From the NCBI GenBank assembly GCA_934254585.1, contig CAKQLF010000006.1:2839-66838 (forward strand): 64,000 bases of DNA. The letters run 5' to 3'. Of the stretch, positions 6,284 to 64,000 are shown one piece after another. A model generated the notes under the pieces. The model saw nothing but the letters and a program-made list of their open reading frames with translations. It did no database searches and had not been told where the DNA came from. The translations under genes were made by a program, and so were the position numbers. Within the stretch, counting starts at the first letter, position 1, and each line of letters opens with the position of its first letter. The DNA is from an uncultured Alphaproteobacteria bacterium. GTDB lineage: Bacteria > Pseudomonadota > Alphaproteobacteria > RF32 > CAG-239.

Positions 6284-6454
6284 TTGATTTATTAAGAAGA
6301 GTTTGCTAAGGTTTGGGTATTGAATAATTCACCTGTTTTATGAGGAAAGAAAGATGAAAAATAAGCAATCAAAAGGTCTCTCTCTCTCTCTGCAAATCCT
6401 AACTGTCTGATTAAAGGCATATTTTCTGCCACTACAGACGTTTTTGCAAGTTTT
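6284..6454 (+). promoter_or_regulatory. Pilin-family 5' cassette, copy 1: a degenerate promoter (TTGATT-17-TAAGGT), GAGGAAAG RBS plus ATG, (CT)7, and a hairpin/T-run
   Basis: About 85% identical to the cassettes at 33321..33497 and 50365..50545. The -10 hexamer is TAAGGT rather than the TGcTATAAT seen in the other copies. Confidence 0.6.
6378..6391 (+). repeat. (CT)7 dinucleotide tract inside the cassette mini-ORF
   Basis: ctctctctctctct counted directly. The same position holds (CT)8 in copy 2 and (CT)7 in copy 3. Confidence 0.9.
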
Positions 6455-6796
6455 TTGAAGAATTTTAGTTGTAGAGAAACTACTCACTCACACTTCTTTA
6501 ATGTCATTAACGGGCTTGACCCGTTAATCTTGTCGCGACACACATTTTCTTCACTATTCTCAATCATTCGCGGGCACCTCTTTAGCGTCATTCGCTGGCA
6601 CAGACCAGCGAATCTAGATTGCCGGATCAGACTGTGCGTCACGTCCGGCAATGACAATAAGGTGGAGCATGTCGCGTTCGGCAATGACAGTAGATTGGGA
6701 CGATGGTTAAGAGCTGTTTGCAATTTAATAAATACCCCTCACTCGGCACTGTCGTGCCACTCTCTCCCGCACGGGGCGAGAGAGTATGGTCGTTCG

Positions 6797-7381
6797 ATGA
6801 TAGAAATGCTCGGAGTATTAGCTATAGTGGGTGTCCTTTCCGTCGGTGGTATCGCCGGCTATTCTAAGGCGATGGAAAAGTGGAGAATTAATAAGCTGAT
6901 GGAAGAATACAGTTATATGATACAAGGAATTTTAGGCCACTTAACTGAATTTCAAAAATTACCTCGCAATACCGGCCTCGTTGACGTTGGTTTAGCGATG
7001 AATTTTATCCCGTCAAATTGGAAAAAAATAAATCCATTACTCGCTTATGACACTTTCGGAAATGTGGTTAAACCTTATGCCAGAGATAAGCGCGTTGTCA
7101 TTGACTTTTATTTGGGAGGCTTTTCAGACGGACAAAAATCTAAAGGGTTTTCGCCCAGGATATGCGCCGCCATAATGAAAGATCTGGTCAAACCTTTACA
7201 TTCATCTTTAACCTACGCTTGGATATTTCGTGGTGGATTTGTTGTAACCGACCACTTTCGAGGCGACACACGTTGCACCTCCAATGTTACTTGTTTAAGA
7301 GACATCACTCCAGATGACATTAACCGAGTCTGCAACTTGTGTGACGGGGAAAGACAATGTTCCATTACAATTGAATTTTAA
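6797..7381 (+). CDS. Type IV pilin-like protein, copy 1. Start unresolved: 6797 is the only in-frame ATG and the frame is open from 6365
   Basis: GRSMIEMLGVLAIVGVLSVGGIAGYSKAM aligns with the prepilin N-terminal motif G-FTLIELMIVVAIIGILAA, with E at +5 and AIIG conserved. The Cys-rich C-terminus resembles a pilin D-region. It is a paralog of 33875, 50648 and 63150. The copy-2/4 GTG start position reads GAG here, so no equivalent start exists. Confidence 0.6.
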   Translation: MIEMLGVLAIVGVLSVGGIAGYSKAMEKWRINKLMEEYSYMIQGILGHLTEFQKLPRNTGLVDVGLAMNFIPSNWKKINPLLAYDTFGNVVKPYARDKRVVIDFYLGGFSDGQKSKGFSPRICAAIMKDLVKPLHSSLTYAWIFRGGFVVTDHFRGDTRCTSNVTCLRDITPDDINRVCNLCDGERQCSITIEF

Positions 7382-33315: not shown

Positions 33316-33320
33316 TTTTA

Positions 33321-33497
33321 TTGATTTATTAAAAAGTATTTGCTATAATCATGGTGTTTAATAATTAACTATTTTTATGAGGAAAGAAAGATGAAAAATA
33401 AGCTTAGCAAAGGTCTCTCTCTCTCTCTCTGCAAATCCTAAATGTCTGATTAAAGGCATATTTTCTGCCGCTACAGACGTTTTTGCAAGTTTTTTCA
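33321..33497 (+). promoter_or_regulatory. Pilin-family 5' cassette, copy 2
   Basis: TTGATT at 33321-33326, a 17-nt spacer, then the extended -10 TGcTATAAT at 33341-33349. GAGGAAAG RBS with ATG at 33391. (CT)8 at 33415-33430. GTCTG..GGCA..UGCC..CAGAC hairpin followed by GTTTTTGCAAGTTTTTT. Confidence 0.65.
33415..33430 (+). repeat. (CT)8 tract, one unit longer than in copies 1 and 3
   Basis: Counted directly as ctctctctctctctct. Confidence 0.9.
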
Positions 33498-33829
33498 GAA
33501 AAAATGATGTATGCGAGAATAACAAGCACAGCACGAAACTGGCAGGCGGCACAAAGCAAGCAATTCTAGCACCAGTCATTCTAAGCCCTGTGCCTAGAAT
33601 CTTGTTGCAACAAGGTACTAACCTAGTCAATAAATTTGCCTTATTATTACATAAGTGTCGGTTCGCACAAGATTCTCGGGACAAGCCCGAGAATGGCGGT
33701 AGCTGGAGGTGTTGGCTTATTATTTGTTGCTCGTTTTTTAATCACCACTCACCCGACACTACCATGTCGACCGATAAGCCATCAAAGGGATTGGGTGTCG
33801 TGCGTCAATACGCCGCACTTTTGGAACGA

Positions 33830-33849
33830 CGTGTACAGAGTAGTACACG
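33830..33849 (+). promoter_or_regulatory. Perfect 7-bp inverted repeat CGTGTAC-N6-GTACACG, about 25 nt upstream of the GTG start
   Basis: The same inverted repeat occurs twice upstream of copy 4 (63775..63795 and 63889..63908). Confidence 0.5.
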
Positions 33850-33874
33850 AGCGCAAAAATTCCTAGCAGATGGC

Positions 33875-34567
33875 GTGCAGTACGGGAGAAGTATGATTGA
33901 AATGTTAGGCGTTCTGGCCATCATCGGTGTTTTGAGCGTTGCCGGAATCGCCGGTTATTCCAAGGCGATGACTAAGTGGAAAATCAACAAATCCATTGAA
34001 CAAATAGAGCAAATTACCCACAACACATTCACAACTTTTGCCAACCAAAAGGACTTTAGGTCTATATATTCTTCTGACGAAGATGGTATAAACCTTTTTA
34101 AATCTTTAGGCATAATCTCCGAGGATATGATTGTTGATGGTCAGCTAAAAAATTCATTTGGCGGGGATTTAAAACTGTATGCTGGCACATTTAATAGTAG
34201 TTATCTAACTCATTCAGGCGAAAAATATTTTTCACTTGAATACTGGAATATACCACGCGAAGCCTGTATGGCTTTGGGTTCCCTAGATTGGGCTAAAGGT
34301 TCTGATACTGTAATAGGTGTAGGAATCTCACCTAATCGTGATAATGTAATGATAGATCCTACTGAGTGTTGGCTTCTTAATTATCTCACCCTGGATTATC
34401 GCGACGGAGGCTGGTTAGTGGTTTGCAATAATGGTGTTCCAGATGAAGAGTATGGAGAAACGGAAGCTGATAGGATACCTCTGCCAATTCCGCTTGATAT
34501 TGTGGCCGAACATTGTAAATGCAAAGATAACGATTGTTATTTTGGCGTGGCCTTCACCGATAAATAA
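33875..34567 (+). CDS. Type IV pilin-like protein, copy 2. GTG start giving leader MQYG; the frame is open back to 33395
   Basis: QYGRSMIEMLGVLAIIGVLSVAGIAGYSKAM prepilin-type N-terminal helix. C-terminal Cys pairs (CKCKDNDC). Its 5' region is nearly identical to that of copy 4. Confidence 0.65.
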   Translation: MQYGRSMIEMLGVLAIIGVLSVAGIAGYSKAMTKWKINKSIEQIEQITHNTFTTFANQKDFRSIYSSDEDGINLFKSLGIISEDMIVDGQLKNSFGGDLKLYAGTFNSSYLTHSGEKYFSLEYWNIPREACMALGSLDWAKGSDTVIGVGISPNRDNVMIDPTECWLLNYLTLDYRDGGWLVVCNNGVPDEEYGETEADRIPLPIPLDIVAEHCKCKDNDCYFGVAFTDK

Positions 34568-34624
34568 CATCTTTTTCAGAGCTAAAAAATCCCTCATAAA
34601 AGCGCGGGGTTTCGGTATATAACT

Positions 34625-34658
34625 AAAAGCACTATATTGGAAAATACAGTGCTTTTAG
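34625..34658. terminator. Bidirectional terminator hairpin (AGCACT..AGTGCT) flanked by an A-run and a T-run
   Basis: Lies between the convergent pilin copy 2 and mnmA. Confidence 0.5.
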
Positions 34659-34659
34659 T

Positions 34660-35751
34660 TTATTCCATATTTGACTCGATTATGCCACCGCCAAGCAAAA
34701 CTTCGTCAATTTCATTGTTTTTATGATAAAAAACCACCGATTGCCCCGGAGCAATAGCCTTTTGTTTAGCATAAAAACGAACCTCTATTTTGCCCGCAGA
34801 CAGCGGGGTAATTTTCACCGGTGTCGGCTGCTGAGAAGAACGAATCTTGGCCTCACATTCCAATGGTGCGGTTAACTCAGCCACTTCTCCGCATAATTCG
34901 GCGGCAATCAATCCCGAACGTTCGCACTCCTCTTCAAAGCCGACAATAACTTCATTTCTGTCTTTGTTAAACCCAAGAACATACAACGGACGCTCGGCGG
35001 CAATTCCCATTCCGCGCCGTTGCCCAACCGTGTAATGCCAAATTCCCTGATGTTGTCCCAAAACTTTTCCGTCACGGGTTACAAAATTACCAACTTGCGG
35101 TTCATTTTGCAAAATATCGTTAATATCTCCGGTATAAAAATCTTGACTGTCCGGTTTGTCCGAAACTTCAAGTCCAAACTCGCGCGCCAATTCCCGCACC
35201 CGCTTTTTGGTTAGCCCGCCCAACGGCATCAAAACTTTTGAAAGCTGCTCTTGATTTAAGCGATACAAGAAATATGACTGGTCTTTGGTGCTGTCCAATC
35301 CACGCTTAATCACATAACGATTGCGAGATTCATCAAAACAAACTTGCGCATAGTGTCCGGTGGCAAATTTATCAAATTCAATTCCTTTAGCCTTAGCCTC
35401 TTCCGGCAAAGCGTTAAATTTGATGTAGGAATTACACATCACACACGGGTTTGGCGTGCGACCTGCCTTATATTCGTGCTTAAAGTTTTCTAACACCATT
35501 TGCTTATAGCGAGCCGAACAATCCAAAACATAGTACGGGATATCAATTTTTTGACATAACGCGCGCGCGGCCTCAATATCTTGTTCTTCATGCGGTGAAA
35601 AGCAAGAATCGGCATAAACATTGCCGCTGAAATGCGTATTTTTATCCCAAATAGACATTGTCGCGCCAATCACTTCATATCCCTGTTGTTTCAGCAAACA
35701 AGCCGTCACCGAAGAATCTACACCGCCGCTTAAACCAACTAAAACTTTCAT
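34660..35751 (-). CDS. mnmA: tRNA-specific 2-thiouridylase MnmA
   Basis: PP-loop motif VLVGLSGGVDSSV. The start was trimmed to the ATG at 35751 with GAGGTAAAAG upstream. Confidence 0.9.
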   Translation of the reverse strand: MKVLVGLSGGVDSSVTACLLKQQGYEVIGATMSIWDKNTHFSGNVYADSCFSPHEEQDIEAARALCQKIDIPYYVLDCSARYKQMVLENFKHEYKAGRTPNPCVMCNSYIKFNALPEEAKAKGIEFDKFATGHYAQVCFDESRNRYVIKRGLDSTKDQSYFLYRLNQEQLSKVLMPLGGLTKKRVRELAREFGLEVSDKPDSQDFYTGDINDILQNEPQVGNFVTRDGKVLGQHQGIWHYTVGQRRGMGIAAERPLYVLGFNKDRNEVIVGFEEECERSGLIAAELCGEVAELTAPLECEAKIRSSQQPTPVKITPLSAGKIEVRFYAKQKAIAPGQSVVFYHKNNEIDEVLLGGGIIESNME

Positions 35752-46065: not shown

Positions 46066-47064
46066 TTATAGGCCGATTTTTTGGTTAAGTTTCAAAATAT
46101 CTATCACAGAAAAAATTGTGTAAAATTGATTAAACACTCTGTCTATTTTTTTCTTATTAACATTGCTGCGAAAAAACGAACAGGCTTCAAACATATCTTG
46201 TTTGCTGGAAATAGCCAATAACAGCTGATTATCCTTAAAACTGAACTGAATGTTTTTTCCCTCGTAAAGAGAAGTCAATTTCAGCATTCGTTCCATAAAA
46301 GCCGTTGTCAACAAATAGCGTGCCTCAATTTGGTCGGAAGAATAAACTTCAAAAATCTTTTCAAAAACGGAATCTTCCAATTTCACCCGTTGCAACCCCT
46401 TTATCTGCTTAAAAACGTTAAATAAGCCTTTATCCTCAAGCACAACCGTGCGCCCCTTAAAATTTTTGTTCATAGTCAACAAAATACATATACCGCGAAA
46501 TATTTTTTTCTTTTTCACATAGCGGTCAGATTTTTCTTTTAGGCCAAACTCATTTCTGCTTATGGTGTAATAAACCGTTTCTTTTTGCAATAACTCTTCA
46601 GAAATTACAATATTGACATCTTTATATTCACCGCAAAAATAATCATCACCGCGATGAAAATTATAGGCGGGGAACAGTTCGGAATCTTGCAATAATTTAT
46701 CCGGAAGATGCTGCTCGTTTTGATAAGTAAAATTACCGAAAAATCCGGCAAAATCTGCCATTATCGTATCTTTGGCTTTTTTCTTATAAAAATAAATCGG
46801 ACTCCGCACCAATAAAACCACAAATCCGGACAGCCCCAAAATTAAGCCTAAATCAGTCAAATCTTGAGCCGAAGCATTTAAAATAGCCCAAAGCAACAGC
46901 GGATAAAAAAACAAAGCCATAAAAAGCAAAAGCAAAAACAAGCCGAAATAGCGACGGCGTATTTTATCATTTTTTTGCAGTTTCGGTAATAAAACCTTTT
47001 GATAATAGCCATCAAAAGACACTTTCAAATCTTGATAATTTTTATCTGCCGTAAAATCAAACAT
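46066..47064 (-). CDS. Hypothetical membrane protein, paralog of 47064..47987, possibly DUF3137-like
   Basis: 332 aa. Two N-terminal TM helices. Shares motifs with the adjacent gene (FKDNQLLLAISS versus IKDNQLIIFLQNG). Confidence 0.55.
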   Translation of the reverse strand: MFDFTADKNYQDLKVSFDGYYQKVLLPKLQKNDKIRRRYFGLFLLLLFMALFFYPLLLWAILNASAQDLTDLGLILGLSGFVVLLVRSPIYFYKKKAKDTIMADFAGFFGNFTYQNEQHLPDKLLQDSELFPAYNFHRGDDYFCGEYKDVNIVISEELLQKETVYYTISRNEFGLKEKSDRYVKKKKIFRGICILLTMNKNFKGRTVVLEDKGLFNVFKQIKGLQRVKLEDSVFEKIFEVYSSDQIEARYLLTTAFMERMLKLTSLYEGKNIQFSFKDNQLLLAISSKQDMFEACSFFRSNVNKKKIDRVFNQFYTIFSVIDILKLNQKIGL

Positions 47065-47987
47065 CAGCTTTCTGCCAAATCATAGAGATTACCGACAATC
47101 TCACCTAGAGTTTCGGCTTTTTCCATTTGCAAATTAAGATTTTCAAAATCTTTTTCAGAAGCCACGGAATGCCAAGCGGAGGACTGTTGATAGCTTAATT
47201 TACCATTCTGTAAAAATATGATTAACTGATTGTCTTTGATGCGTAAATTAACTTTTGCCGCCTTAAATATTTCTTTCAAGTCTAAAATACTTTCAAACAA
47301 AGCTGAAACTAAAATATAATTTTTAATTTTTGAACTATCGGTAAAAATCTGAAAATAATTAGACGCCGGAATATTTAAGGAAATTTTTTCCAGTCCTTCA
47401 TATTTTTTTTGTTTTGCCACACCGCCTTTTTCAAACATTAAAAGCGTTCCGCGCAAATTTTGCTTAAAAGAGTAACTAAGCATTATGCCGCCACTATTTT
47501 TCACAATTTCATTTTGTTTTGTCTTGTTTTTCAACAAAGCAATTTTTTTCAATTCAAAAGCAAACTGCAAAAAATTCCCGCTGATTTTAAGTTGTTCCAC
47601 CAAATCTTCTTTAACCGGAAACAAAATATCTTTTTCTGCAAATACATTTTCTTCTTGCAGCTGCAAATTGTCATAATATTTGATATATTCGCGCAACATA
47701 TCAGTTTGCGGAATCGTTTTAGCGCGTCTTGCATACCACCACAAAAACAACACCGAAAAAGCAACAAGCAGCAACAGCTGTTCATAAGAAATAATATGGC
47801 CGGAAATCAAATGCCGAAACAACACAACCAATATATTTACACTGTTTACAAAACACAAAACACCGAAATAAAGCCAAAAGCGACTCCGAAAAGCATCACG
47901 ATTCCGGCCTTCTTCCTCCAATAGGGGTTTTAAATTTTGTTGAAAGAAATCATCAAAAGGATTGTTTTGAGAATTGTCATTTGTCAT
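47064..47987 (-). CDS. Hypothetical membrane protein, paralog of 46066..47064
   Basis: 307 aa. Same architecture as the adjacent gene. Directly downstream of lemA. Confidence 0.55.
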   Translation of the reverse strand: MTNDNSQNNPFDDFFQQNLKPLLEEEGRNRDAFRSRFWLYFGVLCFVNSVNILVVLFRHLISGHIISYEQLLLLVAFSVLFLWWYARRAKTIPQTDMLREYIKYYDNLQLQEENVFAEKDILFPVKEDLVEQLKISGNFLQFAFELKKIALLKNKTKQNEIVKNSGGIMLSYSFKQNLRGTLLMFEKGGVAKQKKYEGLEKISLNIPASNYFQIFTDSSKIKNYILVSALFESILDLKEIFKAAKVNLRIKDNQLIIFLQNGKLSYQQSSAWHSVASEKDFENLNLQMEKAETLGEIVGNLYDLAES

Positions 47988-47997
47988 TTTCTAAACC

Positions 47998-48579
47998 CTA
48001 CTTAAAATAGTTTTGACTGTTAATCGGTTGTCTTTCTGCTTCACTTATTTCAAAAAAAGGCATATTTTGAGAATTTATACCAACCAGTCTGGCAAAAATG
48101 TTTATCGGAAAAATATCGGCCAGATTTTTTAAGCTGTTAACATTAGAATTATAAAAACGGCGAGCCGCGGAAATATGCTCTTCCACCTCGTTCATACTTT
48201 GCATTGCCGCAATCATAGTTTGATTAGACTTTAAATCCGGATAATTTTCTAACGACACCTTGAAATCATTTAATTTTTGCGCCAATAAATTTTCCAACTT
48301 CATTTTTTCTTTTGGAGAATTGGCAAATGAGCTGCCCATCGCTTGAGTGCGTAGTTGAGTAAGTTCAGACATTAAGTTTTTTTCGTGTTCCATAAACTTT
48401 GCCGCCATCTGCAGCATATTGGGAATCAGATCATAACGTTTTTTCAACTGAACATCTATATCAGAGGCAGACTCCCGCACCTTATTGCGTAGAATTACCA
48501 AACGAGCATATAGCGCGTATAAAAGTACAAGAACAACAGCTGCCGTTATTATTTGCGGATTGAGCCAATCTATTTCCAT
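47998..48579 (-). CDS. lemA: LemA-family protein
   Basis: 193 aa. N-terminal TM helix and LemA core (NKVRESASDIDVQLKKRYDLIPN). Confidence 0.8.
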   Translation of the reverse strand: MEIDWLNPQIITAAVVLVLLYALYARLVILRNKVRESASDIDVQLKKRYDLIPNMLQMAAKFMEHEKNLMSELTQLRTQAMGSSFANSPKEKMKLENLLAQKLNDFKVSLENYPDLKSNQTMIAAMQSMNEVEEHISAARRFYNSNVNSLKNLADIFPINIFARLVGINSQNMPFFEISEAERQPINSQNYFK

Positions 48580-48710
48580 TTTATTCTCCTTAAATTTTTT
48601 TATGGCTTCAAATTTAAATCATTATTCTTAAAATTTTCTAAAGATAGCTGCTTATCAATGCTTGATTAGACTTTGAATTTATGCTATCATTGTTTTAGGG
48701 AGATGAAAAA

Positions 48711-49187
48711 ATGGAAGACGCAAACAGAAGTAAAAAAATCCATAATTTGTTTAATAATCTGCATCATCTGAATAAAAAAGATGCCGAAGAAGTTGTGGCG
48801 AAGAAAAAGCAATCGGAAAACGACGAGAAAAAGAAAGAAATAAGACTCAGCCGTGCAGAAATAATTAAAGGTTTGCGTATGGGAAAATCGCTAGCGTTGC
48901 AAACTGAATTACGCAATCGCTTAAAACAAGCTACAGCCCGCCGCCGCAATTCTCGACTAAAAAGAAACAATTCAGAATTTTCTCAGAATCGTGAAGAGGA
49001 ACTGCGAAAATATACACGTAATTTACCGGAAAAGCAGCGCAAATTTGTGGAAAAAATATTTAAAGAAAACGGCGTTACGCCTTATACTGTGGCATTACTT
49101 AAAAAAGTCCGCAGTGCTGACGACTATCAAAATATTCCTGACAAACCTCGCCGCGTCTACTCTCGCCAGCGTCAGCGCAGCAAATAA
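48711..49187 (+). CDS. Highly basic K/R-rich hypothetical protein
   Basis: 158 aa. No recognisable domain. Confidence 0.45.
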   Translation: MEDANRSKKIHNLFNNLHHLNKKDAEEVVAKKKQSENDEKKKEIRLSRAEIIKGLRMGKSLALQTELRNRLKQATARRRNSRLKRNNSEFSQNREEELRKYTRNLPEKQRKFVEKIFKENGVTPYTVALLKKVRSADDYQNIPDKPRRVYSRQRQRSK

Positions 49188-49280
49188 AAAATTATAAAAT
49201 TTATTCAGATTTAATATTGACAAAAAAGCTATTTTTTGCTATTTTTGGTAAGATATTTAATTATTAAAAATTTTATTACT

Positions 49281-49775
49281 ATGACTAATTATTTTACATC
49301 TTTGGTTGAGGAAAATCGTATTGCTGTTCTTACTAAACAAGTATTTAACCAACGTCTTGAGAAAGACAGCCAGTCTTCTTTTGTTCAAGTTTTGAGCCTT
49401 GATGAAGAAAAAGCCATTATCTCGCAATTTTTGAAAACAAAATCGGCCGACTGGTTAAAATTTATAAGAGAATATGTAAATCACTACCCTCTCAATCCGA
49501 ATAATTTTGTTTTGTTGGTTGATGACCTAAAAACAGATTCTGTAAAAAAATTTGTGGCCGACTACTTAAAAATGTATGGCACTAATGAAAAAGAAAGTCT
49601 GGCCATTTGCAAAAAAATTCGCGAAACCGAAGATTTTGACGAAAGTTTTTTAACGACTTTCTGCAGCACGGCTCGCCATTATTACAAAACCGTTTCTTAT
49701 CAATTAGATGATATTGATGAAAAATGGAACAAAATGTATAATGACGCTATAGCCCAAAATTCGAAATTAGTTTAA
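49281..49775 (+). CDS. Hypothetical protein
   Basis: Track ORF from 49236. The first ATG in that frame is at 49281 (MTNYFTSL). Confidence 0.45.
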   Translation: MTNYFTSLVEENRIAVLTKQVFNQRLEKDSQSSFVQVLSLDEEKAIISQFLKTKSADWLKFIREYVNHYPLNPNNFVLLVDDLKTDSVKKFVADYLKMYGTNEKESLAICKKIRETEDFDESFLTTFCSTARHYYKTVSYQLDDIDEKWNKMYNDAIAQNSKLV

Positions 49776-49916
49776 TTCGAAAAAAATAAGGTCTGATACA
49801 ATAAATCAGGCCTTATTTTGTTACAAAATCGTGACATTTTTACCTTATTTTAAATAAATATTTGCACACTTTAAAAAAAATTGATAATTTAAATAAGTAG
49901 AGCAAGGAGGCTTAAA

Positions 49917-50357
49917 ATGCGTAATTTATATAACGCGATACCTTTAACGATAGAGCAAAAAGTTGCTTATATTCGTGTACTTGCTTATATGGCAAAATCT
50001 GATTGCAATCCGGATTATATTGAACAGAATTTTACCGGTAAATTGTTGGAAAGAATGAATCTTTCACCGGATATTTTGAAAAAAATTTTTATACCTCGCA
50101 ACAATGAGGAATTGTATCGAGCTTTAATGCCGATTTGCACTCGCACCATTGCCATTGATTTATTGCATTGCCTATGGTTTGCGGCCTCGGTTAACACCAT
50201 TATTTCTGATGAGGAAATAATGATTATTCGGAAGATAGCCCAAATCTTACGCATTGATAACGATACACTTTTAAATATTCACCATTTTGTTACTGATGAA
50301 ATTATGTTTTTGCAGCACGCCAAAGACGTTTTGGAAGCAGATGACATAAAATGTTAA
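49917..50357 (+). CDS. Hypothetical protein, possibly a TerB-like helical domain
   Basis: 146 aa. AAGGAGG RBS. The helical pattern resembles TerB/DjlA-N-like domains. This is a weak call. Confidence 0.4.
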   Translation: MRNLYNAIPLTIEQKVAYIRVLAYMAKSDCNPDYIEQNFTGKLLERMNLSPDILKKIFIPRNNEELYRALMPICTRTIAIDLLHCLWFAASVNTIISDEEIMIIRKIAQILRIDNDTLLNIHHFVTDEIMFLQHAKDVLEADDIKC

Positions 50358-50364
50358 TCTCTTA

Positions 50365-50545
50365 TTGATTTGTTAAGAAGTGCTTGCTATAATCAAGGTG
50401 TTTAATAGTTCACCTAATTTTATGAGGAAAGAAAGATGAAAAATAAGCAATCAAAAGGTCTCTCTCTCTCTCTGCAAATCCTAAATGTCTGATTAAAGGC
50501 ACATTTTCTGCTGCTACAGACGTTTTTACGAGTTTTTACAGAAAA
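50365..50545 (+). promoter_or_regulatory. Pilin-family 5' cassette, copy 3
   Basis: TTGATT at 50365-50370, a 17-nt spacer, then TGcTATAAT at 50385-50393. RBS with ATG at 50436. (CT)7 at 50460-50473. Hairpin followed by GTTTTTACGAGTTTTTAC. Confidence 0.65.
50460..50473 (+). repeat. (CT)7 tract
   Basis: Counted directly. Confidence 0.9.
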
Positions 50546-50647
50546 AATGATATATTAAAAAACCATCAACTCAGCGACGATTATACAGACTCACCCCATG
50601 CGGAAGATGTCACTGGATTGCTTCGCTATGCTCGCAATGACAGTAAG

Positions 50648-51253
50648 GTGCAGTGTGGACGAAGTATGATAGAAATGCTTGGCGTTCTGGCCATAATCGG
50701 CGTTCTGTCTGTCGGCGGTATTGCCGGTTATTCCAAGGCAATGATGAAATTCAAAACCAATCAAATTGCCGACCAAGTATCCACTATCGTAACTAATATC
50801 AAAACACTATACGCTCAGCAGAAAAACTACGAGGGGCTGAATAATGCTTCTGCTGTATCAATGGGAATTATACCGGACAAATTAGGCTCTGATTTAACCC
50901 ATCCATTTGGCGGAAATGTAGGCGTTTATTCAGATTATGGTATAAACACATTCTTTATTGAATATAAAGAGTTACCAAAAGAGGCTTGTATAAGTTTGGC
51001 AACTAATGACTGGGGCGCAAGTATTTCATCCGGTTTAGTTGCTATGGCTGTTAGCACTTATAGTACTTACATTCCTCCAATCTTAAACAAAATGTATTTA
51101 GGTTGCCAGGGGGAAGAACAATATTGGGGACGAGCTTATATAGCTTGCCCTGGTGGTTCGGTTCTGTCTGTTCCGATGAGTCCGGAAAAAGCCTCCGCCG
51201 CTTGTGCTTGTGATAAGGGAAATACTTGTTCGGTTGGTTGGATGTATCACTAA
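50648..51253 (+). CDS. Type IV pilin-like protein, copy 3. GTG start giving leader MQCG; an alternative TTG at 50618; the frame is open back to 50447
   Basis: CGRSMIEMLGVLAIIGVLSVGGIAGYSKAM. The alpha1 extension QVSTIVTNIKTLYAQQKNYEGL is shared with copy 4. C-terminal Cys cluster. Confidence 0.65.
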   Translation: MQCGRSMIEMLGVLAIIGVLSVGGIAGYSKAMMKFKTNQIADQVSTIVTNIKTLYAQQKNYEGLNNASAVSMGIIPDKLGSDLTHPFGGNVGVYSDYGINTFFIEYKELPKEACISLATNDWGASISSGLVAMAVSTYSTYIPPILNKMYLGCQGEEQYWGRAYIACPGGSVLSVPMSPEKASAACACDKGNTCSVGWMYH

Positions 51254-51259
51254 CAATCT

Positions 51260-51290
51260 AAAAAAGAGAGGTCTTGCCTCTCTTTTTTTT
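51260..51290. terminator. Bidirectional intrinsic terminator: A-run, GAGAGG-tcttg-CCTCTC, then T8
   Basis: Lies between the convergent pilin copy 3 and the lipoprotein gene. Confidence 0.7.
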
Positions 51291-51304
51291 ACATCAATAT
51301 ATTC

Positions 51305-52519
51305 TTATTTTTTAATCACAACCACCGTTGGGATTTTCTTGTTTATTTCGCTGCGGGCACTCACTTGCAAATTTTCCGCCGGTACCGACATTGTAAGCAT
51401 ATCGCCAAATATTTTGGCCGTAACATTTTGAGCTTTTTCCTGAGCCGCCGTATCCATCGGCATTAGAGCAATCACTTCAAAACGAGAATCCGGATTGTTT
51501 TGCAATGTGCTATAAACGGCTTTACTTAACTTTTCAAAATATTCCACATCTTCGTTAGGAAAATCCATTGAAAAAATTGTGCCGCTGATTTTTTGTTCAG
51601 GTTCAATAATTGTCTTGGTATGTTTCGGAGCTTCGGTATTCAAAGCTTTCTGCACACTCTGGATTGTGGCTTTTTTTGTGTTTTTTACTTGTTTGGCAGC
51701 CGCCGGTTTTTCGGTTTCAATAATTCCGAATTTCTCACCCAATTTTAATCTGGTACGACTGGAATGAACTGACTTATCTTTCGCCAACGCCTTATGAATT
51801 TTAACAGGTTTGATTGTCTTAAATGTTCCGCTCTGCCCTGTTGTAAGCGAAGACATAACCGAATCTGAAGTTCTGTTGGCATATCCGGCGGCCACATCAA
51901 CATTCAAACGGGTGATTTCCGCCCTAAATTGACGCGCTTTGTCTTGTTCATCTGCCAAGTCAGATTTAACCTTAGCCAATAAATCAGCGTTGGTAATTTC
52001 CTGCTGTTCCAAAGCTGAGGAAATAACGTTCAAATCCGAATGGTCAACATCATAAGCCCCCGGAATGGCGTATGTGGCATTAACAGTTGATTTTAAGGCC
52101 GACAATTTTTCCTGTTGGCTGATAACATCTGCCGAAATACCTGCCAATTTCTGAGTTCCGTCTTCAAGAGTCCCCAGATTTTGCTGAGCTTTGTTCAAAG
52201 CTGACACTAAATCCGGATTAGACGGAGTTGTGCCGGTTTGCAGTTTGGCCTCTATTGTATTAATAATCGAATTATATTCAGAGTCCGCCTCGGCAATTGA
52301 TTGATTAATTTGATACAGTTTTTGAGCACTGCCGTTTATTGAGCGTCGAATCTCGTTATATTCTCGGGTAAACTCATTAACTTTTTTCCCCACAAAAGAA
52401 CCGCTGCTGTTAGAAATATTTAACGCCGGTGACGGGCTGACGCCTTGAATCTGAACATCGTTAGCCGCACAAGCCGCCAATAAAAACGCCGTTGCCGAAA
52501 GTAATGCAAATTTTTTCAT
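51305..52519 (-). CDS. Hypothetical lipoprotein
   Basis: 404 aa. Lipobox LLAAC after a signal peptide. Coiled-coil-rich. No recognisable domain. Confidence 0.6.
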   Translation of the reverse strand: MKKFALLSATAFLLAACAANDVQIQGVSPSPALNISNSSGSFVGKKVNEFTREYNEIRRSINGSAQKLYQINQSIAEADSEYNSIINTIEAKLQTGTTPSNPDLVSALNKAQQNLGTLEDGTQKLAGISADVISQQEKLSALKSTVNATYAIPGAYDVDHSDLNVISSALEQQEITNADLLAKVKSDLADEQDKARQFRAEITRLNVDVAAGYANRTSDSVMSSLTTGQSGTFKTIKPVKIHKALAKDKSVHSSRTRLKLGEKFGIIETEKPAAAKQVKNTKKATIQSVQKALNTEAPKHTKTIIEPEQKISGTIFSMDFPNEDVEYFEKLSKAVYSTLQNNPDSRFEVIALMPMDTAAQEKAQNVTAKIFGDMLTMSVPAENLQVSARSEINKKIPTVVVIKK

Positions 52520-52685
52520 TATTTAAGCCTTATATTTTAAAGTTAACTTTTAATATTGCTCTATTTGTAAAGTGTTTTTATTAAAAAAACAATTAAAGAA
52601 TTAAGGATTTGTGCAAAATTTAAAAAAAATAAAAAAAAGTGCTTGCATTTATATTTTTTTTGTTCTATTAAAATACCCAGTTGTT

Positions 52686-52762
52686 GCGCTCGTAGCTTAA
52701 TTGGATAGAGCATCTGACTACGGATCAGAAGGTTGTGAGTTCGAGTCCCGCCGAGCGCGCCA
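52686..52762 (+). tRNA. tRNA-Arg, anticodon ACG, with encoded CCA
   Basis: Manual fold: acceptor 1-7 with 67-73 (GCGCTCG/CGAGCGC); D-arm; anticodon stem TCTGA/TCAGA with loop CTACGGA; T-loop TTCGAGT. The T-stem GTGAG/CCCGC contains one A-C mismatch. Confidence 0.85.
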
Positions 52763-52823
52763 TTTGAAGAAAGGGCTTTCAGAGAAATTTGAAAGTCTTT
52801 ATTTTTTTTGTTTGGAATAAAAA

Positions 52824-53690
52824 ATGCACACAGAACTCGTTACTTTAGAATATTTACCGCAATATGAAGCCTATGGCCTCAGTGATGAACAAATACGATT
52901 TTATGACGAACAACACATAATCCCCTTGCTGTCTTTGCTTCCTGATGACATTCGGCAACTGGGAGGCACGCTAAATAACAATCAGCCGACAGTGGCGTTT
53001 TTATTGGGACGTGATGAAAATTACTACACCATTGACTATAACTATGCTCGCGCTGTTTTACAATCCGGAGTTAATATCAGACTTTTAACCTATTCCGCTT
53101 GCAAAGAGCAAATGCAGGGAATCGACGGGCTGATTCTCCCCGGCGGAAGATTTCCCTCGCCGGAACAATTTTATTGCGATGCCGCACCGAATAACTTATT
53201 GCCACACGAAGCCCGCGCACAAGCCTATCTTGATTGCATTGACACAGCCTTAAAGCAACAGTTGCCGATGCTTGGTATCTGCGCCGGTGCGCAGATGATT
53301 GGCGGCGTTATGGGAATGAAAATGTATCGCAATACCAAACAGTATACTAATACAGATATTGAACATAAAACCAAAATATTAGATGCCCACAAAGTTTTGA
53401 TTCAAAAACCATCTCCGTTGTTTGATATTTTACAAACAACGGAAATTGAAACCAATTCACGCCATACCGAATCGATGTTACCTTATGCTTCTGACAGTAA
53501 GCTGACAATTTATGCTCGCACAGAAGACAACGTTCCCGAGGCTTGGGGAAATACCGAAAAACACATATTGTGCATTCAGTGGCACCCCGAAGATTTTGCC
53601 GCCAACGGAGATATTTCAATGCAACGCATTTATAACTGGTTGGCACAACAAGCTCAAAATCACAAAATAAAATTTGACAAAAATTTCTAA
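52824..53690 (+). CDS. Class I glutamine amidotransferase-like protein (peptidase C26 / gamma-glutamyl hydrolase family)
   Basis: 288 aa. Cys nucleophile in GICAGAQ and His in QWHPE. Confidence 0.75.
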   Translation: MHTELVTLEYLPQYEAYGLSDEQIRFYDEQHIIPLLSLLPDDIRQLGGTLNNNQPTVAFLLGRDENYYTIDYNYARAVLQSGVNIRLLTYSACKEQMQGIDGLILPGGRFPSPEQFYCDAAPNNLLPHEARAQAYLDCIDTALKQQLPMLGICAGAQMIGGVMGMKMYRNTKQYTNTDIEHKTKILDAHKVLIQKPSPLFDILQTTEIETNSRHTESMLPYASDSKLTIYARTEDNVPEAWGNTEKHILCIQWHPEDFAANGDISMQRIYNWLAQQAQNHKIKFDKNF

Positions 53691-63116: not shown

Positions 63117-63151
63117 CGTAAAAGGCGGAAGTAAAATAACTTCCGCTTTTT
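63117..63151. terminator. Bidirectional terminator: GCGGAAG-taaaataa-CTTCCGC plus T5
   Basis: Lies between the convergent ugd and pilin copy 4. Confidence 0.6.
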
Positions 63152-63749
63152 ATCTGAAGAAAAGTCCCATACAAACGGTGCCATCTTGTTGAGCTCTATT
63201 GCAGTATTTGTTGGCCATATCAAAACTTATGATATTATTTCCGCCTTCAGCACAAACAAAATAAGCACCCTTTATTTCTATTTTTCCGGAACAACCTTGT
63301 CCGGTTTGCTTTATTCCTGCAGCTCCATTCAAAAAATTATGAGCGAGAACAATAGATATGCCGTACAAACCATTAGCATTGCCACCCCACTGTTGGGTGG
63401 TTAAAGCCAAGCATTGTCTTGCAGTCAGTCCGCAAATGCGTAAACCGAATAAGGCTCCATCTTCAGAAGCTCTTAATCGTACATCGGTATTTTTCCCCAA
63501 TGGCAAATTCCAATTGTTTTCCGGATACACACCGGCTTGTAATGCGGTTGAATCAGACAAACCTTCATACGATTTTTGCTGCATATAAAGCGTTTGCACA
63601 TTAGTGGCTATTTGTGTCAGATAATCAATAGTTTTATCTATTTTCCACTTTTCCATCGCTTTTGAATAGCCGGAGATTCCGCCGACGGAGAGAACAGCGA
63701 TTATGGCGAGAACGCCGAGCATTTCTATCATACTTCTCCCATACTGCAC
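63150..63749 (-). CDS. Type IV pilin-like protein, copy 4. GTG start at 63749 giving leader MQYG; the frame stays open upstream to beyond the window end
   Basis: QYGRSMIEMLGVLAIIAVLSVGGISGYSKAM. The alpha1 extension is shared with copy 3. C-terminal Cys residues are present. Its 5' cassette would lie beyond position 64000. Confidence 0.65.
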   Translation of the reverse strand: MQYGRSMIEMLGVLAIIAVLSVGGISGYSKAMEKWKIDKTIDYLTQIATNVQTLYMQQKSYEGLSDSTALQAGVYPENNWNLPLGKNTDVRLRASEDGALFGLRICGLTARQCLALTTQQWGGNANGLYGISIVLAHNFLNGAAGIKQTGQGCSGKIEIKGAYFVCAEGGNNIISFDMANKYCNRAQQDGTVCMGLFFR

Positions 63750-63774
63750 GCCATCTGCTAGGAATTTTCTCGCT

Positions 63775-63908
63775 CGTGTACTTTTTTTGTACACGTCGCT
63801 TAAAAATCCCGTCGCATCTGACGCACATTGCGGAAGAAGATTTCTAATATGTTTTGTCTGTTTGGTTACTGCTCGCGCTTTTCTCACTCGTGTACTACTC
63901 TGTACACG
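63775..63908 (-). promoter_or_regulatory. Two copies of the inverted repeat CGTGTAC-N6/7-GTACACG upstream of pilin copy 4
   Basis: 63775..63795 has an A7 spacer and 63889..63908 has spacer agagta. It is the same operator-like inverted repeat as at 33830..33849. Confidence 0.5.
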
Positions 63909-64000
63909 TCGTTCTAAAAGTGCGGCGTATTGACGCACGACATCCAATCCCTTGAATGTGATTGTATTTTTCTTTCTATAATCAATCACCCTCTCAACAT

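Follow-up and report, generated by a model that had tools for sequence, protein, structure and literature searches.

A CT-repeat frame switch in the leaders of type IVb-like prepilin genes of uncultured gut Alphaproteobacteria: probable slipped-strand phase variation

Why would a gene place a promoter, a Shine-Dalgarno sequence and an ATG in front of a long pilin reading frame and leave this ATG out of that frame? The question is raised by three genes located in a stretch of 64,000 nucleotides from an uncultured Alphaproteobacteria bacterium (lineage RF32; CAG-239), positions 2,839 to 66,838 of contig CAKQLF010000006.1 (assembly GCA_934254585.1), here called the window. Each gene starts with the same cassette, in which a tract of CT dinucleotides, (CT)n, follows the ATG. 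A sequence-only reading of the window had proposed that the tract is a phase variation switch operated by slipped-strand mispairing, which is ON when n is a multiple of three. Natural alleles with the ATG in frame and changes of tract length in otherwise identical DNA support this proposal. Slipped-strand phase variation at a translational switch in the prepilin leader is in our view the probable explanation of the sequences compared here.

The CT cassette and the pilin frame

An exact-match search found (CT)7, (CT)8 and (CT)7 in the genes termed copies 1, 2 and 3, where shuffled sequences lead one to expect none, and thereby reproduced the tract lengths and positions given by the sequence-only reading (Table 1). 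Outside these three tracts, no dinucleotide is repeated six or more times in a row in the 64-kb window, and no homopolymer reaches nine nucleotides. Alignment of the three cassettes showed that a segment of approximately 190 nt is conserved, in the order sigma-70-like promoter, GAGGA Shine-Dalgarno sequence, ATG with the next 21 nt (seven codons), CT tract and about 65 more conserved nucleotides. The −10 hexamer of copy 1 is TAAGGT, not TATAAT, and this copy may therefore be less transcribed even if in frame. A scan of the whole window at the Rfam gathering threshold found one tRNA-Arg alone and no match at the cassettes.

The distance from the A of the ATG to the tract is 24 nt in all three copies, thus the ATG joins the pilin frame only if n is a multiple of three. 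Computed translation places the cassette ATGs at 6354, 33391 and 50436 in phases 0, 1 and 0 (modulo 3) and the pilin frame in phase 2 in all three genes. The last upstream stops in the pilin frame are TAA 6362, TGA 33392 and TAA 50444, behind which the frame runs without a stop as far as the gene ends (7381, 34567 and 51253). All phases and stop positions that had been worked out by hand were reproduced, and translation of all frames confirmed that no stop interrupts the pilin frame of any window copy from just past the ATG to the end of the gene. In none of the three copies does the ATG lie in the pilin frame, which it would enter at n = 3, 6 or 9; this agrees with the earlier arithmetic that (CT)6 or (CT)9 would fuse the two; natural in-frame alleles with (CT)3 and (CT)6 exist. 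As they stand, the ORFs initiated at the ATG end after 18, 16 and 18 codons in copies 1, 2 and 3, in line with the proposal that the window holds OFF states. A perfect short tandem repeat inside the ORF, between start codon and pilin domain, is one mark of a contingency locus; a change in unit number that moves the ATG into or out of the pilin frame, with early stops in the wrong frames, is another, and the cassettes show both.

Table 1. Positions of cassette, leader and pilin features of the four family members in the window.
Feature	Position	Strand	Remark
Copy 1, promoter-like part, TTGATT-17 nt-TAAGGT	6284..6312	+	Cassette alignment; missed by consensus scan
Copy 1, Shine-Dalgarno GAGGA (6342-6346) and ATG (6354-6356)	6342..6356	+	Invariant in copies 1-3
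Copy 1, (CT)7	6378..6391	+	ATG out of frame; pilin frame −1/+2 relative to ATG
Copy 1, OFF-state product MKNKQSKGLSLSLQILTV, 18 codons, stop TGA 6408-6410	6354..6410	+	Computed translation
Copy 1, stop-free leader, 133 codons including cleavage-site Gly (6788-6790)	6392..6790	+	Palindromes 6506-6528, 6590-6613, 6618-6652
Copy 1, predicted mature pilin (RSMIEMLGVLAIVGVLSVGGIAGYSKAM...) through stop	6791..7381	+	N_methyl matches weak, under Pfam cut-off
Copy 2, promoter-like, TTGATT-17 nt-TATAAT, TG before −10	33321..33349	+	10/12 consensus matches
Copy 2, Shine-Dalgarno GAGGA (33379-33383) and ATG (33391-33393)	33379..33393	+	Cassette alignment
Copy 2, (CT)8	33415..33430	+	ATG out of frame; pilin frame +1/−2 relative to ATG
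Copy 2, OFF-state product MKNKLSKGLSLSLCKS, 16 codons, stop TAA 33439-33441	33391..33441	+	Computed translation
Copy 2, stop-free leader, 152 codons including Gly (33884-33886)	33431..33886	+	Palindrome 33672-33694; dispersed 67-nt module 33785-33851
Copy 2, predicted mature pilin through stop	33887..34567	+	Computed translation
Copy 3, promoter-like, TTGATT-17 nt-TATAAT, TG before −10	50365..50393	+	10/12 consensus matches
Copy 3, Shine-Dalgarno GAGGA and ATG (50436-50438)	50424..50438	+	Cassette alignment
Copy 3, (CT)7	50460..50473	+	ATG out of frame
Copy 3, OFF-state product MKNKQSKGLSLSLQILNV, 18 codons, then stop	50436..50492	+	Computed translation
Copy 3, stop-free leader, 62 codons including Gly (50657-50659)	50474..50659	+	Predicted disordered
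Copy 3, predicted mature type IVb pilin through stop	50660..51253	+	Pfam, 1zwt, AlphaFold/Foldseek
Fourth family member, leader modules and pilin with G↓RSMIEML	63150..64000	−	5′ cassette and CT tract beyond window end

The proteins encoded behind the tracts carry in all four window genes the motif G↓RSMIEMLGVLAI(I/V)GVLSV(G/A)GIAGYSKAM (the arrow marks the predicted cleavage site), with Gly at −1, Glu at +5 and a hydrophobic helix behind it. Scores against Pfam N_methyl and TIGR02532 are under the cut-offs of these models for the window genes. Copy 3 is recognized by Pfam as Bundlin (2.3e-12, 47.8 bits) and PilS (3.9e-11, 43.6 bits) and matches the solved bundlin chain 1zwt (9.6e-07). Its AlphaFold model, built with 53 homologues, shows the alpha-1 helix and a globular domain with confidence, and in Foldseek the model comes closest to the type IVb pilins CofA, TcpA and PilS (probability 1.0 for each). 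Residues 1-51 of the model, which belong to the leader, have pLDDT values below 50 and are predicted to be disordered. Profile matches and predicted fold thus speak for copy 3 being a type IVb pilin. The N-terminal helix is also present in copies 1 and 2, whose globular domains match no Pfam family above cut-off. As part of the explanation that we favor, each gene probably encodes a type IVb-like prepilin and truly starts at the ATG of the cassette.

Tract lengths in related copies

Related cassettes were collected from species-representative genomes and metagenome contigs with a 23-nt cassette core as search pattern; Shine-Dalgarno sequence and ATG are invariant in this collection by construction of the pattern. 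The core was found in 86 metagenome contigs and in at least 110 stretches of species-representative genomes, nearly all of which are metagenome-assembled genomes (MAGs) of human-gut "uncultured Alphaproteobacteria" from Hadza and other cohorts. Single MAGs harbor many copies (at least 43 in CAKQRZ, at least 18 in CAKQDU and at least 13 in CAKQLP), and one Hadza contig (L118) shows 100% identity to the window over 6,669 nt. A search for the wider pilin family gave 7,756 matches, a very large number. Conventional leaders of up to 12 residues are found in most of its distant members and occur in close relatives as well. A literature search found no description of this pilin family.

Altogether, 193 unique cassettes with a complete tract were tallied, 138 of them in front of intact genes; apparent tracts with n = 2, n = 5 and some with n = 3, which are cut by the ends of loci or contigs, were left out. 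Out-of-frame lengths dominate, with 129 copies at n = 7 and 54 at n = 8. In-frame lengths are represented by six copies with n = 6, one with n = 9 and a true (CT)3 on contig L004; a second n = 3 copy (L058) and the only n = 4 copy (L214) are tracts of (CT)7 length with one substitution. Lengths of 7 or 8 thus account for 95% of the copies, and no uninterrupted tract of 4, 5, 10 or 11 units occurs among the related cassettes (a homologue on contig L225 has (CT)11). Only five of the 138 intact genes are in frame (binomial P against one third, 6.5e-18) and 96% are OFF, their ATG opening an ORF of 13-20 codons in the 133 out-of-frame relatives.

The single n = 9 tract of the genome collection is located on contig L088. 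Here, as on L038, the cassette is followed by a common ORF of approximately 100-120 codons without a pilin domain, and both are remnant copies. The n = 9 allele fits relaxed frame selection after loss of the pilin, a sample far too small to build on.

Comparison of close relatives showed that the tract changes faster than its flanks, as expected for a contingency locus. Contig L127 (n = 8) and window positions 46917-53355, which include copy 3 (n = 7), align over 6,441 nt with no mismatch and one 2-nt gap, the extra CT. Contigs L004 (n = 3) and L126 (n = 7) differ in 4,054 nt by three mismatches and one 8-nt gap. Three of the five groups in which the same allele was seen in more than one sample vary in n. 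At the site of copy 2 the syntenic copies of other samples have n = 7, 8, 7, 8, 8, 8 and 8, at that of copy 3 they have n = 7, 7, 7, 8, 7 and 7 plus the 3 of L004, and at that of copy 1 n is 7 in all seven other contigs that yielded a cassette.

In-frame alleles are found as complete genes. The (CT)3 allele of L004, a sister allele of copy 3, encodes an uninterrupted leader-pilin fusion of 271 amino acids, MKNKLSKGLSANPKC...G↓RSMIEML (P0001), and full-length in-frame genes with (CT)6 are present on L138, L168, L191 and L194. ON loci made up four of the ten that could be scored in one sample and one of 16 in another. Protein databases contain in-frame leader fragments that fit n = 6, 9 and 12. 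The protein profile search with in-frame leaders yielded no more than 18 short fragments, P0001 not among them; because of its bias to in-frame alleles it is unusable for ON/OFF ratios.

Could the length differences be errors of short-read assemblers at dinucleotide repeats? In favor of such an artefact, all sequences come from metagenome assemblies, in which the cassette is a frequent point of contig breakage. The tracts of 14-16 nt are, against this, well within read length, and independent collections, whose assemblers can be told apart by contig names alone, agree in their narrow distribution of lengths. Moreover, in-frame values are found at 3, 6, 9 and 12 and none at 4, 5, 10 or 11, a pattern that random error does not give. 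We regard an artefact as the cause of the differences as hardly credible.

The prevalence of out-of-frame tracts can also be read in the opposite sense, with the out-of-frame gene as the working state and recoding at the RNA level. Ribosome or RNA polymerase would slip by one CU unit on (CU)7-8, the P-site tRNA for CUC/UCU re-pairing perfectly 2 nt away; pilins would be made constitutively at a low level, and alleles whose DNA has n = 6 or 9 would be infrequent mutants with excess expression. The 133 out-of-frame genes among 138 and the confinement of n to 7 and 8 are what one would see in this case, the leader is kept open in the pilin frame and translation must reach it somehow, and a dinucleotide repeat, as read from its sequence, offers identical codons at +2 and −2. 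Such slippage is unlikely to be the explanation, since n = 7 requires −1/+2 and n = 8 requires +1/−2, opposite events from one cassette, and since changes in DNA length and full-length in-frame alleles occur that pure recoding does not need. Nor was a stimulatory structure found: the sole consensus helix is invariant, the z-score is −0.93 and Rfam gave no match. The fixed single direction and the stimulatory element of programmed frameshifting are not found at the CT tracts. An improbable extension of the idea starts from the scarcity of in-frame genes (five of 138) and takes n = 7 or 8 not as the consensus of a switching population but as the designed default of a bidirectional +2/−2 CU-slippage device for more than 40 genes, with n = 6 or 9 in the DNA as a second, stronger gear.

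The helix in question was obtained with RNAalifold from 20 diverse cassettes. It joins the Shine-Dalgarno region (GAGGAAAGAAAGAUG) to the (CU)n tract (50424-50476 in copy 3 and the equivalent positions in copies 1 and 2) with −7.5 kcal/mol; the z-score refers to the fold of the 5′ region of copy 3 as a single sequence. Because the helix is invariant, covariation cannot be shown. This pairing may have an anti-Shine-Dalgarno effect whose strength is set by the length of the tract.

The syntenic slots of copies 2 and 3 hold different pilin alleles in different samples (L115-L120 against window 33316-34660, L124-L129 against 50358-51300). The called products range from 237 to 433 amino acids, and identity is approximately 70-85% downstream as against more than 99% in the upstream flank. 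These alignments point to frequent allele replacement or recombination behind a conserved cassette. Housekeeping genes of the usual kind (the dcw cluster, ClpB, PheS, a CoA-transferase, MnmA and SSB) surround the window genes, thus the pilin genes are single insertions scattered along the chromosome and not an operon.

Some further observations concern the distribution of the family. Several cassette contigs lie in foreign bins (L009, L010, L018 and others of CAVKTH; L056, L058 and L099 of CAVIDY; L081 and L108 of CAVEOB; L085; L113), which are titled Bacteroidaceae bacterium, [Ruminococcus] gnavus or Eubacteriales; most likely they are mis-binned or mislabelled alphaproteobacterial contigs. 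The 936-nt contig L003 contains a pilin identical to copy 3 behind (CT)7, with a different sequence upstream of the Shine-Dalgarno sequence that has no promoter hexamers, which could be an assembly chimera at the repeat or a promoter-swapped variant. Three distant relatives with short leaders (P0053, P0079 and P0014) have NY repeats in the leader (MNNYNYNYKEQAG versus MNNYKYEEQSG), which suggests in-frame variation of a hexanucleotide repeat.

An open leader and its start codon

The segment between tract and pilin is long and open. Directly behind the tract the frame is the pilin frame and stays open to the pilin motif in 71 of the 77 related copies with enough sequence, over 52-480 codons (median 129). 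The window copies have 61-152 leader codons after the tract, which would give approximately 73-165 residues from ATG to Gly in the ON state; the short basic leader of about 5-30 residues by which type IV pilins are recognized is not present in them. Across 75 copies the pilin frame contains no stop in 9,205 leader codons, the two remaining frames having 494 and 736, and at the stop density of those frames a leader of median length would be free of stops by chance about once in 10^4 cases. The stop counts show that the leader is under selection to stay open. Variation at the three codon positions of the post-tract leader is 0.58, 0.57 and 0.54. As there is no excess at the third position, the protein sequence of the leader seems unconstrained apart from staying open, a result that is neutral on translation.

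The long leaders have a mosaic structure of short perfect palindromes and modules that recur; RQYAALLERRVQSSTRA, LLRYARND and DSRDKPENGG are examples of their translations. A 67-nt module of copy 2 (33785-33851) matches positions 63887-63953 on the minus strand, in the leader of the fourth gene, with 97% identity; this gene reads leader modules followed by G↓RSMIEMLGVLAIIAVLSVGGISGYSKAM. The modules resemble REP/MITE-type elements whose insertion has left the frame intact. A larger insertion is found on contig L224 (3001-4450), where the gene for an IS110-family transposase sits in the leader of a (CT)6 cassette and the pilin behind it has its own GGAG and ATG and the short leader MYKNFEHG↓RSMIEML. 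The in-frame leader ORFs P0121, P0131 and P0133, each on a different contig, share the terminal read-through peptide SDEKVIHREI before the stop, which suggests a site-specific IS110 target in a leader module.

The number of out-of-frame copies (96% of the intact genes) could mean that most are silent, either as decaying pseudogenes or as promoter-bearing donor cassettes that feed a few expressed loci in the manner of Neisseria pilS. Recombination is evidently active, with differing alleles at one syntenic site, and some copies are degenerate, for example L088 and L038, which have lost the pilin domain, and L224, which is split by the IS110-family element. Pseudogenes would, on the other side, gain stops, and here 9,205 leader codons and the pilin domains stay open. 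Every copy keeps promoter, Shine-Dalgarno sequence and ATG, and the frame defect always lies at a single hypermutable site, one step from repair. We therefore judge it very unlikely that the family consists of silent copies.

Which start codon would the open leader belong to? The sequence-only reading had allowed for states that express only a short form from an internal start. This part of the proposal is not supported, since an in-frame ATG is absent from the whole leader in 35 of 75 copies. The recurrent internal ATGs of the remaining copies, 10 or 20 codons before the cleavage site, lie inside repeat modules without a Shine-Dalgarno sequence, and a designed internal start near the pilin domain was rejected for this reason. 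In copy 2, the frame is open from 33395 and the first canonical in-frame start is found only at 33590. The relative on L225 (1501-1600) has a homologous start, ATGAAAATAAGCAAGCAAAAGAA(CT)11AGAAATCCT, which is in frame and leads into a normal leader of 28 residues (MKISKQKNSLSLSLSRNPQSQPIESTQSG↓RSMIEML). This homologous in-frame start in front of G↓RSMIEML indicates that the cassette ATG is the start codon of the pilin itself. In the lineage of L225 the ON state requires n = 2 modulo 3. The leader in the lineage of the window has been stretched by insertions, and because L225 has its (CT)11 in a short leader, the CT switch is older than the leader expansion.

If the pilin did start at an internal codon of its own, the ORF of the cassette would encode a regulatory peptide of its own, whose length, set by the repeat, controls transcription or translation of the pilin by attenuation, a mechanism known at a pilus locus, pil1 of Streptococcus gallolyticus (PMC3894217). 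The OFF ORFs end after 13-20 codons, upstream of the hairpin-forming palindromes of the leader; the downstream pilin of L224 has its own ribosome binding site and start, and most of the distant relatives have short conventional leaders, all of which would suit attenuation. A separate peptide does not, however, need the pilin frame behind it, and at n = 0 modulo 3 the cassette frame is the pilin frame, unbroken in about 93% of the copies. The 35 of 75 copies without an in-frame ATG and the lack of a Shine-Dalgarno sequence in the rest also count against it, as does the search of the three window leaders for intrinsic terminators, in which no terminator-like site was found. Leader-peptide attenuation is thus quite an unlikely replacement for the frame switch. 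A polarity effect could add to the switch, in that premature termination of translation may lower the downstream transcript.

Probable phase variation of a pilin repertoire

With slipped-strand phase variation as the preferred explanation, we infer the following course of events. The cassette would supply a sigma-70-type promoter, a strong Shine-Dalgarno sequence, the ATG and seven codons, followed by (CT)n. Slipped-strand mispairing at replication would add or remove CT units of 2 nt each. With n a multiple of three, the ATG would be fused through the long stop-free leader to the pilin with its cleavage site G↓RSMIEML, and in this ON state a prepilin peptidase would presumably remove the whole leader. 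With n = 7 or 8, translation would stop after 13-20 codons just behind the tract, where both other frames have stops, and no pilin would be made. A leader that is removed at G↓R would be free to vary and would for this reason tolerate insertion of palindromic modules while the frame stays open; the expected free variation fits the absence of codon-position periodicity and the mosaic of modules. Each OFF length is one slippage step away from an ON length (7 to 6, 8 to 9), and 7 and 8 would form an OFF basin that is flanked by ON lengths. The basin seems rarely left, possibly because ON states, once fixed, do not last or are disfavored by selection; a mutational bias that restores the length, or gene conversion between the many identical cassettes, may also act. 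At least 43 genes per genome, nearly all OFF, would then be a bet-hedging library of alternative pilus subunits for a commensal of the human gut.

Several points weigh against this explanation. A freely drifting contingency repeat would look different from a tract confined to 7 and 8 units, and the confinement needs added assumptions, be it selection against ON, a length-restoring bias or gene conversion. Several alleles at the same locus keep n across samples (copy 1 always has 7), so the rate of change is not extreme. All tract lengths were taken from consensus metagenome assemblies, in which a repeat may occasionally be misassembled. To our knowledge, leaders of 50-480 residues exceed any class III signal peptide, and a peptidase would have to process them at these lengths. 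As its variation has no codon-position periodicity, the leader may be conserved as nucleic acid rather than as protein. Finally, a motif search for a GspE-type ATPase and an A24 peptidase in 1.6 Mb of collected loci found none, with crude short motifs that make this result uninformative.

Should phase variation be correct, more than 40 independently switched type IVb pilin genes would be among the largest repertoires of phase-variable surface proteins known in a commensal. The lineage consists of uncultured human-gut Alphaproteobacteria that recur in many Hadza and other gut metagenome collections. Contingency loci are known mostly from pathogens (Neisseria, Haemophilus, Helicobacter and Campylobacter) and would extend to gut commensals, whose known phase variation is mainly DNA inversion. 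Counts of n, locus by locus, in deep or long-read metagenomes that already exist could serve as a read-out of clonal heterogeneity, of selection on pili by IgA or phages and of strain dynamics. The long, stop-free and repeat-filled leaders would be an unusual disposable protein segment and a sink for mobile palindromic elements.

The mechanism as such is already known from Helicobacter pylori oipA and Neisseria opa. New aspects are the host, a type IVb pilin family of such size, prepilin leaders that are very long and filled with repeats, and tracts that keep to two OFF lengths. The closest analogue is oipA. CT repeats in its 5′ signal-peptide-coding region switch it ON and OFF by slipped-strand mispairing, with 29 CT patterns and 72% ON among isolates, and the same has been reported for sabA and babA (PMC10564699). 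The unit is CT in both cases, the site lies just past the start codon in a cleaved leader and the logic of the switch is the same. The protein is a porin-like outer-membrane protein in H. pylori and a type IVb pilin here, and a handful of genes there compares with at least 43 per genome here. Moreover, 95% of the copies here have n = 7 or 8, 96% of the intact genes are OFF, and the leader of 50-480 codons is not a normal signal peptide.

The opa genes of Neisseria carry CTCTT pentamer repeats in the leader-coding region; approximately 11 dispersed copies encode adhesin beta-barrels in these pathogenic Betaproteobacteria. As with opa, the pilin genes are a dispersed multigene family of surface proteins in which each copy has its own promoter and, within the leader-coding region, a repeat that would switch independently, and in any one genome the majority are OFF. 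They differ from opa in the dinucleotide unit, in their number of more than 40 copies, in encoding pilins and in their host, gut commensal Alphaproteobacteria.

With BfpA bundlin, TcpA, CofA and PilS of Salmonella and R64 the window genes share the G(−1)/E(+5) motif and the long hydrophobic alpha-1 helix, and copy 3 shares Pfam family and predicted fold. The leaders of known type IVb pilins have about 13-30 residues, and those systems have one major pilin gene in an operon, in contrast to the scattered single genes found here. At pil1 of S. gallolyticus, GCAGA repeats in a leader peptide are combined with transcription attenuation (PMC3894217). It resembles the window genes in being a pilus locus whose coding repeat sets how far an upstream ORF is translated and in the resulting heterogeneity of expression; pil1 has a separate leader ORF and a terminator, whereas the window genes have an ORF that runs on into the pilin, and their leaders gave no terminator-like site.

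The many pilin variants per genome and their recombination, seen here as differing alleles at one syntenic site, are shared with Neisseria pilE/pilS. The pilS copies lack promoter and 5′ coding end and serve as donors only, whereas every copy here has a promoter, Shine-Dalgarno sequence, ATG and frame switch. Rickettsia palindromic elements are in-frame insertions within coding genes. The leader modules are like them in being palindromic and in lying inside an ORF whose frame stays intact, here accumulating in a segment that is presumably cleaved off; the likeness is one of form.

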